Source: Schmidtea polychroa
Taxonomy: Eukaryota
Assembly (NCBI GenBank): GCA_044892525.1
Contig: CM097885.1
Coordinates: 7,318,001 to 7,382,000 of the forward strand
DNA length: 64,000 nt
Direction: 5' to 3'
In this document: positions 14,083 through 38,607 of the stretch, one piece after another
Layout: every line of letters begins with the position of its first letter
Position numbering within the stretch: the stretch's first letter is position 1
Position numbers and translations under genes: made by a program
The notes under the pieces: model-generated
Seen by the model: only the letters and a program-made list of their open reading frames with translations
What the model was told of the DNA's origin: nothing
Database searches by the model: none

Positions 14083-15100
14083 AGTAGGTAGTTAGAAGCC
14101 CGCTGCAGCAAACCCCCCCCCCCTGCTGCACGATTTTTTTTGCTGCAACTTTTGATTACGCAATTGCTGCAACTCACATTTTTTGCTTTCAGGGATTTTT
14201 GGTCCAAATTTTTTTTATCACACTATAGTGAGGGGGTCTCGATGGTCCTGGGATTTTCAATACAAAAAATTTTTTTTCAATACAAAAACGATGGTCCTGG
14301 GATTTTCAATACAAAAAAAAATTTTTTCAATACAAAAAGCTGGTCTCAATAAAAAAGCATGGAATTTTCAGACTATAGTGAGGGGGTCTCGATGGTCCTG
14401 GGATTTTCAATACAAAAACGATGGTCCTGGGATTTTCAATACAAAAAAAAATTTTTTCAATACAAAAAGCTGGTCTCAATAAAAAAGCATGGGATTTTCA
14501 GACTATAGTTAGGGGGTCTCGATGGTCCTGGGATTTTCAATACAAAAAATTTTTTTTCAATACAAAAACGATGGTCCTGAGATTTTCAATACAAAAAAAT
14601 TTTTTCAATACAAAAATCCTACTACCAGTAAAAAAGCATGGATTATTCACACTATAGTGAGGGGGTCTCAATGGTCCTGGGATTTTCAATACAAATAAAA
14701 TTTTTCAATAGAAAATCTGACTATCAATAAAAAAGCATGGTAATTTAAGGTCTCAGGATATTTTCAATACAAATAGGTGGTCTACACTAAAAAAGCGAAG
14801 GATTTTTCAGACTATAGTGAGGTGGGTCTCTTTGCTCCTGAGAAAAAGGTGGTCTACACTAAAAAACGTGGTAAATTTTTCAATTAAAGTAAATTATGGT
14901 CCTAAAAATTGAATTACAGTAAATTATGGCTCAGATTTTTAAATTACAGTAAATTATGGTCCTAAAAAATTAAATTACAGTAAATTATGGTTCTAAAAAA
15001 TTAAATTATGGCTCAAATTTTTCAATTACAGTAAATTATGGTCCTAAAAAAATTAATTCAAAAATCTGAGCCCATAATTTACTGTAATTTAAAGTAAATT
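14083..15100 (+). repeat. Left terminal inverted repeat with internal subrepeats (CACTATAGTGAGGGGGTCTCGATGGTCCTGGGATTTTCAATAC; AGTAAATTATGG)
   Basis: Reverse-complement match to 37948-38607, e.g. 14821-14893 vs ~38122-38194. Inner boundary approximate. Confidence 0.8.
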
Positions 15101-18100
15101 ATGGGCTAAAAAATTAAATTAAAGTAAATTATGGTCTAAATAAGTAAATTATGGCTCAAATTTTTAAATTACAGTAAATTATGGTTCTAAAAAATTAAAT
15201 TACAGTAAATTATGGCTCAAATTTTTAAATTACAGTAAATTATGGCTCAAATTTTTCAATTACAGTAAATTATGGTTCTAAAAAATTAAATTACAGTAAA
15301 TTATGGTCCAAATTTTTAAATTAAAGTAAATAATGGTTCTAAAAAATTAAATTAAAGATAATTATGGTCCAAATTTTTAAATTAAGTAATCAATGGTAAA
15401 AAATTTTAAATAAGTAAATTAAAGTAATAATTTTTAAATTAAGTAATCAATGGTAAAAAAATTTTAAATAAGTAAATTAAAGTAAATTAAAGTAAGATTT
15501 TAAAATTTATTAACAAAAAGTTGAAATAATAGGTGTTTGAGAATTGAAATTTTTTAATGAAAATTTTTTATGAAATAATTTTTTAAGAAATTTTTAATGA
15601 AATATTTTTCAATGGTAATTTTTAATGGAAATTTTTATAGAATAATTTTTTAAGTTAATTTTTAATGGAAATTTTTATGAAATATTTTTCAATGATAATT
15701 TTAGATGGAAATTTTTAAGATAATTTTAAATGAAAATTTTTATGAAATATTTTTCAAAGACAAATTTTAATAATAATAATTCAACAACAAACCAACAACT
15801 TAGTACCAACAACCAGTAACTTATGAACATGTATTAACAACCAGATACCTACAACTAGTTACTAACAACCTGATACCAGATACCAAGTACTTACAACTAG
15901 TTACTAACAACCAGATACATGATACCAAGTACTTACAACTAGATACTAACAATATGTTACCAGATACCAAGTACTTACAACTAGTTACTAACAACCAGTT
16001 ACCTGATACCAAGTACTTACAACTAGTTACTAACAATCAGTTACCTGCTACCAAGTACTTAAAACTAGTTACTAACAACCAGATACATGATACCAAGTAC
16101 TTACAACTAGATACTAACAATATGTTACCAGATACCAAGTACTTACAACTAGTTACTAACAATCAGTTACCTGATACCAAATACTTACAACTAGATACCA
16201 AGTACTATCAACCAAAAACAACCAACCAACTAGGTACTAGATACCAAGTACTAACAACCAACAACAACCAGGTACTAAGCATTATCAACCAACTAAATAC
16301 TAAGTACTAACAACCAACTAACAACTAGATACCAAGTACTAACAACCAACATCAACCAGGTACTAAGCATTATCAACCAAGTACTAACAACCAAGTAACT
16401 TACCTAGTACTAAGCACTGTCAACTAGATACCAAGCACTGACAACCAGATGACCACATGAAATTATTGGTTAAATAAGTAAATTAATATTTAATTTTTAA
16501 ATTAACTAATCAATGGTCTAAAATATTAAAGTCAATTTAAGATGAAAGTTTTCTGGGATTTTCAATGTTAATTTTAGATGCAAATCTTTGTCAATTAATC
16601 AATGACCACATGAAATTATTAGTTAAATATGAAAATAAGGATTACAATTAGTTGTTAAATTAAGAAATAAAGGATAAATAGGTAAATTAAGGATAAGTAA
16701 ATTAAAGAAAACAATGGTTTAAATTTTAAATAAGTAAATTAAAGTAATTTAAAGTAAGATTTTTAAATTTATTATCAAAAGATTGAATAACCACGATCTT
16801 TTTTTGAAAAATGTAATTTTTAATGAAAATTTAAATGGAAATTTTTTTAAGTTAATTTTTAAAGTAAATTTTAATGAAATAATTTTTTAAGTTAATTTTT
16901 AATGAAAATTTTAATGGAATAATAATAATAATAATAATAATAATAATAATAATAAAAATAATAATAATAATTCAACAGTTCCCAACAATCGGTTACTAAA
17001 TATTTTTAACTAGATGCTAACAATTACTTACAATATGATACCACGTACTAACTAACTCTCAAACAACCACATACTTACAACTAACTACTTACACTCAACT
17101 AAATATTCTTCATTGTATTTTATGAAATGCTTTTTAAATTAATTTTTTATCTGTCTTCAAAAATAAGTTTAATTACAATCAGTAGAAAAACCTTTTCAAA
17201 ATGTCTAAATTTAGCAAAAATGTTGATTTTCATCAAAAAACCACAACTCAACCACTTTAAAACACCACGTGAAATTCAAAATAATTTAAATTACAATGAA
17301 AGACTAATGAATTCTAATTTACAAAACATTCTTCTTTTAAATGATAATTACTGACTTATTATTGCAATGTAAAAATCGCATTCAATAAATACTTATTGCT
17401 GATCAGTTTTATTATATATACTCTGAGTTTATCCGACAGGATGTTTTGACCCCCTAAGGGTACTGGTCGTAAGGGTATTAGTCGTAAGGGTATTAGTCGT
17501 AAAGGTACTAGTCGTAAGGGTATTGGTAACACTCAACCACTACCTACTCATTAATTAACTACCATGTACTAACAACCAGTTACCTGATACCAAGTACATA
17601 CAACCAACAACAACCAGGTACTAAGCATTATCAACCTACAACTATATAACAACAATCAGTAAACAACACTCTACCAACTATTAAATACAAGATACCAACA
17701 ACTAGATACCAAGTACCAACAATCAACTAACCATACATAAAAATAATAGCAATTAAATACAAAATATTCTTCATCACATACACTATCTTCTTATCAAAAT
17801 CTAAAAAGTCAACCAACTACTTACAACCAACAACTATGTACTAACAAATTGATCTTTAAAAGAAAATACTCTTCACTTGAAAAATTGGATGAAAAATTAA
17901 TTGAACTCAAGGCATCAATAACTAGGTAAAAATTGATTAAATATCATTAAAAAATACTAATAATTTCATCATTAAATATCATTATAAAAATTTAAATAAT
18001 AGACAAGAAAGAATTCTAGTTATTAATCATCCAGTAAATAAAAAAATACTGATAATTCAAGTTGAATCAACTAAGATAATAAATTAATAAGATAAGATCT

Positions 18101-18455
18101 AGTAGATAATTGATTTAGATTGAATAAATTAATTGAAATAAAATTAATTTTAATTATTTTTTTTTTAAAAGTACTCAAATTGATTGACTGATTGCTCAAT
18201 ATATTCAAAAAATCATTATGAATTCATTACAATTATCAAAGTCATCAATCTACAATAAAAATAATTATCATTAAATTCCAAAAGAGACTAGATAACTAAT
18301 GATAACATCTAATAAACCAGTAAATTCATTTTAAATGACAATAATTGGTATATCCGAGTGAATTCTCCTATAAAACTTTTGTAAATCACTGTACTTGAAA
18401 TTTAAAATAAATATAACTGACTAGGTCCCATTGAAAGATTAAATTTATCCATTCA

Positions 18456-36877: not shown

Positions 36878-37947
36878 CAATTAAATTTATGTGAATAATA
36901 AAATATATATTGTGAATTATTTGACTTAGTTAATTAAAATGTGTTTTATCATTTAATTATTTATTTGTCCAATTAATTTAGATAATTAGTTTCAAGTAAG
37001 AAATATTATTTTCGTGTTTATTTTATTTATTTATTTATTTTTTCCGAAAAATTAATATCCGGTTTATCTAAAATTAACTCAGCGTTTTATTTTATAATAA
37101 ATTAAATAATTTCTAATTAAAATTTTATTCAAATTGAAATATTACTGTTATAATTTACGCTCTTGTTAGAATATAATGTAAATGTAAAATTTAAAAAAAA
37201 AAAAAAAAAAAATTAATAATAATAATAATAATAAATAATAATAATAATAATAAATAAATAATAATAATAATAATAATTAAATAACGTTAGTAATTAAAAT
37301 AAAATATTAATAAACTAATTAATTAATTAAATGTAATAAATTAAAAATTAACTAAAGTAAGTAACTAAAATAAAAACATAATAAAATAATTAATTAAGAA
37401 AATTAAAAAATAAAAAAAAAATAAATAAATAAATAAAAAAATAAATAAATTGAAGTAATTAAATAAAATTTAAATTAAAAAAATAAATAAATAAAAATAA
37501 AAAAAAATAAATAAATAAATAAATAAAATAATAATAATAAAGCGTAAGTAATTAAAATAAAATATTAATAAACTAATAAATTAATTAAATGTAATAAATT
37601 AAAAATTAACTAAAGTAAATAATTAAAATATAACATCATAAAATAATTAATTAATAAAATTAAAAAGAAAAAAAAAATAAATAAATAAATAGAAGTAATT
37701 AAATAAAATTTAAATTAAAAAATAAATAAATTAATTAAAAAAAAAATAAATAAATAAAAAATAAATAAATAAAAATAAATAATAATAAAGCGTAAATAAT
37801 TAAAATAAAATATTAATAAACTAATAAATTAATTAAATGTAATAAATTAAAAATTAAATAAAGTAAGTAATTAAAATATAACATCATAAAATAATTAATT
37901 AATAAAATTAAAAAGAAAAATTAAAAAGAAGTAATTAAATAAAATGT

Positions 37948-38607
37948 AATTTAATTTTTTAGGACCATTATTTACTTTAATTTAATTTTTAGAACCATAA
38001 TTTACTTTAATTTAAAAATTTGGACCATTATTTACTGTAATTTAATTTTTTAGAACCATTGATTACTTTAATTTAATTTTTAGACCCATAATTTACTTTA
38101 ATTCAAAAATTTGGACCATTATTTACTTTAATTGAAAAATTTACCACGTTTTTTAGTGTAGACCACCTTTTTCTCAGGACCAAGGAGACCCACCTTAATT
38201 TAATTCGAAAAAACCATGCTTTTTTTAGTGATAGTCGGATTTTTGTATTGAAAATATCCTGAGACCTTAAATTACCATGCTTTTTTATTGAAGACCGCCT
38301 TTTGTATTGAAAAAATCCTGAGACCTTAAATTACCATGCTTTTTTATTGATAGTCGGAATTTTGTATTGAAAATCCCAGGACCAAGGAGACCCCCTCACT
38401 ATAGTGTGAAAAATCCTTGGCTTTTTTATTGATAGTCGGATTTTTGTATTGAAAAAAAATTTTTTTGTATTGAAAATCCCAGGACCATTGAGACCCCCTC
38501 ACTATAGTCTGAAAAATTGCGTAATCAAAAGTTGCAGCAAAAAAAATCGTGCAGCAGAACCCCCCCCCCCCGGGGTCATTGCTGCAGCGGGCTCCTAAAT
38601 ACCTACT
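37948..38607 (-). repeat. Right terminal inverted repeat
   Basis: Reverse complement of the 14083 end; terminates in ACCTACT immediately before the CTAACG TSD. Confidence 0.8.

Follow-up and report, generated by a model that had tools for sequence, protein, structure and literature searches.

The analysed window is a 64,000-nucleotide stretch of the Schmidtea polychroa genome (assembly GCA_044892525.1, contig CM097885.1, positions 7,318,001 to 7,382,000). It contains a 24.5-kb unit with Polinton-type ends that consists of two elements, one nested in the other. The outer element is bounded by AGTAGG termini and carries no gene. The inner element is a damaged copy of a palindromic element whose only gene encodes a protein-primed DNA polymerase (polB). 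The features of the locus are as follows, in window coordinates.

14077–14082, plus strand: left copy of the target site duplication (TSD) of the outer element, CTAACG
14083–28032, no strand: fold-back element with AGTAGG ends and no genes, left and central part; no Polinton gene by tblastn
28033–37945, no strand: damaged inner copy of the palindromic element with polB only; AGTAGT terminus intact on the left, lost on the right
28952–31288, minus strand: polB of the left arm, truncated on its centre side at 31,288, without leader exons and the Exo I motif
31318–31497, no strand: mini-element forming the central spacer, its inward-facing ends resembling those of the complete Polinton family P-B (88% over 108 bp)
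31557–32169, plus strand: tandem repeat upstream of polB with 4.2 copies of a 144-bp unit, belonging to the normal arm
32896–36877, plus strand: right-arm protein-primed polB gene, with short upstream exons and an 870-aa frame
34230–34271, plus strand: GT..AG intron candidate of 42 nt, skipped by one contig of sequencing run X8, whose RNA nature is guessed
37946–38607, no strand: right end of the outer AGTAGG element
38608–38613, plus strand: right copy of the TSD of the outer element, CTAACG
49930–50086, minus strand: empty paralogue of the insertion site

The ends of the 24.5-kb unit and its perfect 6-bp TSD are where the original prediction placed them: AGTAGG starts at 14,083, CCTACT stops at 38,607, and CTAACG stands at 14,077–82 and 38,608–13. 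The empty paralogous site is also present in the window. Read on the minus strand from 50,086 to 49,930, it is 93.6% identical across 157 bp and continues ~16 bp beyond a single CTAACG. Of the long terminal inverted repeats (TIRs) proposed for the unit, the inverted ends exist, but the outer TIRs are old and the right side is short. They share ~80% identity in the first 90 bp and 78% across ~500 bp of repeats, and only ~660 bp of the outer element are left to the right of the polymerase block. The left and central part contains terminal repeat arrays of 130, 30, 13, and 42 bp and older inverted blocks at 80–91%, with a reversed internal copy of the terminal repeats near 18,450–19,150. Other fetched loci cover 91% of this part. 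The outer element remaining in the window amounts to 14.6 kb, in line with the standard unit of the AGTAGG family.

The coding content of the unit was examined by tblastn with the open reading frames (ORFs) of two complete Polintons from the same genome. The outer part gives no match to integrase (INT), ATPase, protease, or capsid genes. The inner non-polymerase part matches the polB leader only and likewise none of these four. Their absence from the 24.5-kb unit was correctly predicted, and polB is indeed the only Polinton gene; it is present, however, as two inverted copies that lie in a separate nested element. The long frames within the unit are those of polB only, of 870 aa at 34,265–36,877 (plus strand) and 807 aa at 28,952–31,375 (minus strand).

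The inner element has a Polinton terminus of its own at 28,033. A loss near ~37,945 includes its right terminus and ~0.9 kb of the right arm of the outer element. The polB copies form an inversion (28,418–31,288 versus 34,547–37,418) and are 99.9% identical; over 2,872 bases, they differ by 2 mismatches and 1 gap. The 870-aa frame of the right arm contains all six motifs of a protein-primed PolB (Exo I–III and Pol A–C) and an Endonuclease_7-like insert, and its upstream exons encode a putative terminal protein (TP)/vOTU-like region. The polB frames of the window match DNA_pol_B_2 (PF03175, E 3.6e-31); the Endonuclease_7 match is weak. Both copies in the window are truncated or frameshifted. 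The right one is out of frame near 33,880, a position that is in frame in 28 of 28 other arms, and the left one is without Exo I. The inner copy in the window is therefore probably dead. Its central spacer holds TGAGTCA, TGACGTCA, and TGACCTTG words.

Relatives of the inner element were sought in the assembly from which the window derives (781 Mb, AT-rich). The similarity searches score the best 98–150 candidates, ~1 Mb of sequence was read, and the position lists cover the start of C1 only. In a search with 227 aa of polB, the best 150 candidates are all 97–100% identical and mostly arranged as minus-then-plus pairs. Four loci read over 50 kb each contain palindromes of 12.6–13.2 kb, with arms of 5.7–6.2 kb and a centre of 0.4–1.2 kb. 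Every arm at these loci is a whole polB gene facing outward. All four palindromes begin and end with AGTAGT(ATG/GAA)TAGTAAGG, each has a 6-bp TSD, and none is enclosed by AGTAGG ends. With 30 further end loci fetched and 40 scored, all six neighbouring opposite-facing end-pairs share a 6-mer, although one of them is weak because of an AAT run at the site. A cluster of three ends within a TAT run is uninformative and does not enter the count. In total, the TSD of the palindrome family is 6 bp at 10 of 10 paired sites.

The family end has 500 exact matches in the genome and a 24-mer polB marker has 376. The first 100 ends resolve into 35 pairs and 30 singles, which suggests that the genome contains roughly 250–330 elements. 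A divergent polB pair is found in 14 of the 15 end-pairs of 11.9–13.7 kb, with the markers 1.6–2.4 kb from each end. Among the first 100 polB matches, 31 pairs less than 12 kb apart are divergent and none is convergent. The sequences on the two sides of the palindrome centre are mirror images and not direct repeats. The centre itself, in the window and in loci A and D, is a mini-element whose ends are P-B-like. Because the central ends point inward, a head-to-head dimer with joined termini is ruled out. At locus A (C2:181,414,938–181,444,302), 2.4 kb to the left of the palindrome recurs inverted 12 kb past its right end at 96.9%, suggesting that this palindrome may lie inside a larger fold-back element. 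It is scarcely credible that the palindromes are assembly artefacts built from fold-back chimeric reads. Near-perfect long inverted repeats are generally known as a read artefact, but each palindrome has a unique centre, differing flanks, a direct TSD, and a few arm differences.

The outer element belongs to a different family, whose end has 1,700 exact matches in the genome. Besides the window, TSDs are found at four of four sites, namely three end-pairs and a 6.5-kb unit in locus A. On C1:0–39 Mb, 15 of 24 end-pairs measure 11.9–17.2 kb, and the polB marker occurs in none of these 24 other pairs. A capsid marker occurs in 2 of 15 pairs on C1:0–26 Mb; both are oversized (29 and 33 kb) and are nests like the window unit. 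The AGTAGG family and P-B share no more than AGTAG(G) and a ~100-bp internal block at 80–89%. Reverse nesting exists as well: a unit with palindrome ends has AGTAGG-family DNA at its centre. The outer element has Polinton ends, a TSD, no coding capacity, and many copies, and fits a non-autonomous Polinton derivative.

The original prediction held that the whole unit integrated as one piece, which would make polB the cargo of a single element. The perfect outer TSD and the empty paralogue fit such a move, as does the lack of a visible inner TSD. However, the polymerase block has its own terminus and is found alone elsewhere, with its own TSD and no AGTAGG enclosure at all four other loci. The marker count in the other AGTAGG pairs points the same way. 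In addition, the inverted blocks of the outer element are 78–91% alike versus 99.9% for the inner arms, and the insertion affects one arm only. A single element moved whole is thus highly improbable, even less probable than the segmented system considered below, and the arrangement is that of a polB block inserted after the TIR element, an alternative that the prediction itself had named. Since polB lies on a mobile element of its own, the 24.5-kb unit as a whole does not qualify as a polymerase-only element and is an ordinary nest. The idea of a self-synthesising, integration-dependent element does hold for the inner family. From the confinement of the insertion to one arm and the greater likeness of the inner arms, we infer that the outer element came first and the inner element second.

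Two complete Polinton families are present in the genome. P-A is represented by copies of 15.1 and 16.8 kb with TSDs and encodes capsid, ATPase, and integrase; its protease-like ORF was identified by eye and has no Pfam match. P-B is represented by a 20.65-kb element with a TSD and Pfam matches to rve, Pox_A32, Peptidase_C5, and TBP, the TBP-like protein being located at L156:7,735–8,223 (PF00352, E 5e-15). As a probe for these ATPases, PF04665 by itself performs poorly (13 matches). The capsid markers have 1,885 matches in the genome for P-A and 1,838 for P-B. An element of 2.9 kb that has P-A ends and a TSD contains a capsid gene only (C2:95,153,265–95,156,137; L153–L154). The polB of P-A is 25% identical, and that of P-B 53.6% identical, to the polB of the palindrome family. 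Further polB types at C1:77,475,000 and C2:64,793,000 (L151, L180) are ~51–54% identical to that of the window and group with P-B.

A segmented Polinton, in which the polB unit would serve partner units that contain INT, ATPase, and capsid genes without a polymerase, had also been proposed. Single-gene units such as the capsid-only element exist, and the abundant AGTAGG elements are without an identified polymerase source. However, a polB of its own is present in each fully read multi-gene INT/capsid unit (loci E, F, H, I, and W1), and no polymerase-less structural unit with palindrome-family ends was seen in the partial sample. The segmented reading is unneeded, because polB, INT, ATPase, protease, and capsid lie on one unit in two abundant complete families, and it is very unlikely.

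In a quick tree of 56 rows, which left out L200 (<300 aa), the palindrome polB forms its own clade (Shimodaira–Hasegawa-like approximate likelihood ratio test, SH-aLRT, 100; stem 0.37). The clade is separate from P-A and P-B, and its sister group consists of metagenome proteins. These relatives come from an alignment scan of metagenome contigs, which gave 77 loci, whereas a single-protein scan of such contigs gave no matches. The 21 closest (45–64%) lie on 1–4.5 kb and are too short for architecture except L199 (64% over 226 aa), in which protease and capsid genes stand beside polB. Viral contigs contain relatives at 25–33% only. Because the polB of L199 adjoins protease and capsid genes, the ancestor of the palindrome family was a complete Polinton.

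No integrase is found in the ORF lists of the four full palindromes or in the window unit. Packaging ATPase, protease, and major and minor capsid genes are absent from the palindrome-family units examined, save one chimeric 20-kb unit described below. The P-A or P-B capsid marker occurs in none of seven palindrome end-pairs on C1:0–26 Mb. Thirteen polB loci were chosen as possible singletons, having no listed partner, with matches to the polB frames of P-A itself left out. None of the 13 has a capsid, ATPase, or protease match within 10 kb upstream, and one has a 25-aa integrase match outside the element. Four of the 35 end-pairs exceed 14 kb; three contain divergent polB copies and the fourth, by one 420-bp probe, contains AGTAGG-family non-coding DNA at its centre. 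Two units were considered as complete parents. The 17.4-kb unit at C1:73–91 kb is ruled out by its divergent polB pair, and in the 16.8-kb unit at C1:136.24 Mb one 420-bp probe proved to be AGTAGG-family non-coding DNA. In a 31-kb unit at C1:178,673,357–178,704,432, the polB marker occurs six times in tandem on the minus strand, at intervals of ~3.45 kb, and once on the plus strand.

These data bear on the proposal that the palindromes are copy-back (snap-back) defective derivatives of an unsampled complete parent that has the same polB and ends and persists in this genome or population, selection having acted in the parent. Gene-bearing TIR extension is common in this genome, as a P-A copy has a 3.2-kb TIR containing the capsid gene and a P-B copy has a 5.1-kb TIR containing ATPase and INT. 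The gene neighbourhood of L199 and the restriction of the similarity searches to the best 98–150 candidates also leave room for such a parent. On the other hand, capsid genes accompany the palindrome polB at none of the 13 singleton loci and in none of the seven end-pairs. The four oversized pairs contain divergent polB or, by the single probe, non-coding AGTAGG DNA. In addition, subfamilies 3–4% apart are all palindromic, and the palindromic form is therefore inherited. We regard a copy-back origin as unlikely, although it is the most probable of the rival explanations.

The polB of the palindrome family is under purifying selection. The ratio of nonsynonymous to synonymous polymorphism (pN/pS) is 0.25 over 16 distinct natural 870-aa frames and 0.26 outside the search region, with 0.18 for shared and 0.29 for private variants. 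The coding arms are 99.89–100% identical within an element versus 96.6–99.5% between elements, and in whole-arm comparison this closeness holds for three of four elements. All 28 of 28 arms have the Cys of a vOTU-like motif, an assignment of our own. At three places where intronless homologues read through, polB has GT..AG gaps of 42–48 nt, and the polB genes of the family probably contain introns. Four sequencing runs examined as contigs revealed no splice joint and only one loose end. Near-identical polB is present in sequencing runs under three organism labels. In the metagenome relatives L187 and L193, the frame is broken at positions close to those of the intron candidates of the window, and the introns may be older than the palindrome family.

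The favoured explanation, to which we assign a probability of roughly 0.78, combines a nested insertion with an inner family that is a semi-autonomous, integrase-dependent Polinton satellite. The inner family is best read as replication-autonomous. A gene-less AGTAGG element of Polinton type, ~15.5 kb in size, would have integrated first and produced the CTAACG TSD. A younger palindromic polB-only copy would then have entered its right arm, and later deletions would have removed the inner right terminus and the centre-side half of the inner left arm. In intact copies, polB would be transcribed from the central spacer and spliced by the host. The enzyme would prime at the ends of its own element via a fused terminal protein; the available text of PMC11161782 gives the domain order of protein-primed PolB (pPolB) as TP-vOTU-EXO-PALM. 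The displaced strand would fold back over nearly its full length and, with one arm serving as template for the other, the palindrome would be rebuilt in each round. Integration would be provided in trans by a retroviral-type integrase of P-A or P-B. By analogy, retention of polB would reflect a tendency of protein-primed polymerases to own-end specificity, the integrase requiring few terminal bases.

Several observations weigh against this explanation. The ends of the candidate helpers P-A and P-B agree with the palindrome ends in the first 5–6 bases only, AGTAG(T/G). Divergent polB markers are present in 19 of the 35 end-pairs; three pairs have a single marker and 13 have no exact marker. A 20-kb unit (C2:157,217,459–157,237,468; L175, L176) has a full P-A-type gene set, including a P-A-type polymerase, between palindrome-family ends with a shared TSD. 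The ends of P-A itself were not found at this unit; both of its sides hold, in mirror image, a 245-bp mini-element that has yet another type of end. Given the partial sample, the genome may contain a rare complete parent that has the palindrome-family polB. In the window, the inner TSD is not visible, the right terminus being gone. The pN/pS values are biased downward, as they come from intact copies with top scores and some elements contribute both arms. The whole-arm mismatch of element C (0.98%) is larger than its distance to element A (0.72–0.78%), and arm identity could arise from gene conversion after insertion. Skipping of the 42-nt gap at 34230–34271, which occurs in a single contig of a sequencing run presumed to be RNA, is weak support for splicing.

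A more extended version of the favoured explanation is tentative and, in our view, doubtful, though less so than a copy-back origin. The family would be a long-independent polintovirus satellite lineage in which only the TP/polymerase is left. Full-length fold-back would double a 6-kb arm to a 13-kb palindrome whenever the element replicates, and its origin would be orthogonal to those of the helpers. It would be integrated, and possibly packaged, by co-resident Polintons, the doubling giving a packageable length, and it would perhaps be a polymerase source for gene-less satellites. For packaging in helper capsids there is a size argument only, the palindromes having a modal length of 12–13.7 kb versus 15–21 kb for the helpers.

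Other parts of the window contain further repeats. Additional AGTAGG-type ends and arm pieces are found at 1–5,438, 6,300–6,730, and 39,897–41,694, and the region is a cluster of such elements. A tandem array of 65 copies of a 21-bp unit occupies 8,730–10,084. Tandem units of ~1.5 kb with AAT runs fill 57,300–64,000; part of them matches the centre of palindrome B at 80–87%, and they may derive from another Polinton-type mini-element. Overlapping frames of 640 and 204 aa at 42,935–45,264 (minus strand) have no Pfam match, and their Atlas neighbours are unnamed, mostly arthropod proteins. From their motifs, we take these frames to resemble a cut-and-paste transposase.

We know of no direct demonstration of Polinton self-copying, or of a need for virions to spread. 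A high-copy lineage with a selected polymerase and without integrase or capsid separates three functions in one genome. It would imply that a Polinton integrase, unlike the polymerase, acts in trans on foreign ends and that homogenisation of the arms over 6 kb is possible. Surveys that require pPolB linked to INT, as described in the available part of Jeong et al. (10.1101/2023.08.22.554363), would by design overlook such elements.

Among known systems, non-autonomous Polintons and foldback elements resemble the outer AGTAGG element in their Polinton ends, 6-bp TSD, and gene-less state. They differ from the inner family, which retains a selected polymerase and for which a Repbase consensus may exist. 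Non-autonomous, gene-less Polinton derivatives are reportedly known from the work of Kapitonov and Jurka in 2006 and from Repbase. A literature search, with Repbase, supplements, and most subscription journals outside its scope, found no description of a palindromic polB-only family. The available parts of PMC8532177, PMC6431247, PMC8504770, 10.64898/2025.12.11.693146, and 10.1101/2024.01.15.575659 describe no such family; PMC8504770 there mentions polymerase-only consensuses, which are fragmentary only.

The remaining comparisons likewise refer to the available parts of the sources. Intact Polintons/Mavericks have eight intronless ORFs and TIRs of 46–1,447 bp (Barreat and Katzourakis 2021, PMC8097293). 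The palindrome family shares with them (AGT)2-type ends, a 6-bp TSD, and a protein-primed polB, and is near the lower end of their size range of 12.7–24.6 kb. Unlike them, it has one gene, duplicated in 5.7–6.2-kb TIRs, with probable introns. Insect polintons with ~2-kb TIRs that contain hexon and adenain have lost polB and are still mobile (Pannagram preprint, 10.1101/2025.02.07.637071). Gene-bearing TIRs and polB-less mobile polintons are thus already in print. The insect elements resemble the palindrome family in that genes are duplicated in the TIRs and partial elements are mobile, but they lost polB, whereas the palindrome family lost all but polB. The cytoplasmic linear plasmids of fungi, killer or cryptic, are each proposed to replicate by their own polymerase (PMC13348850, PMC11161782). 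Like the palindrome family, they are Polinton-derived, capsid-less, and helper-dependent and have their own pPolB. However, they are free cytoplasmic DNA that borrows transcription, whereas the palindrome family is integrated with a TSD, is probably spliced, and would borrow integration.

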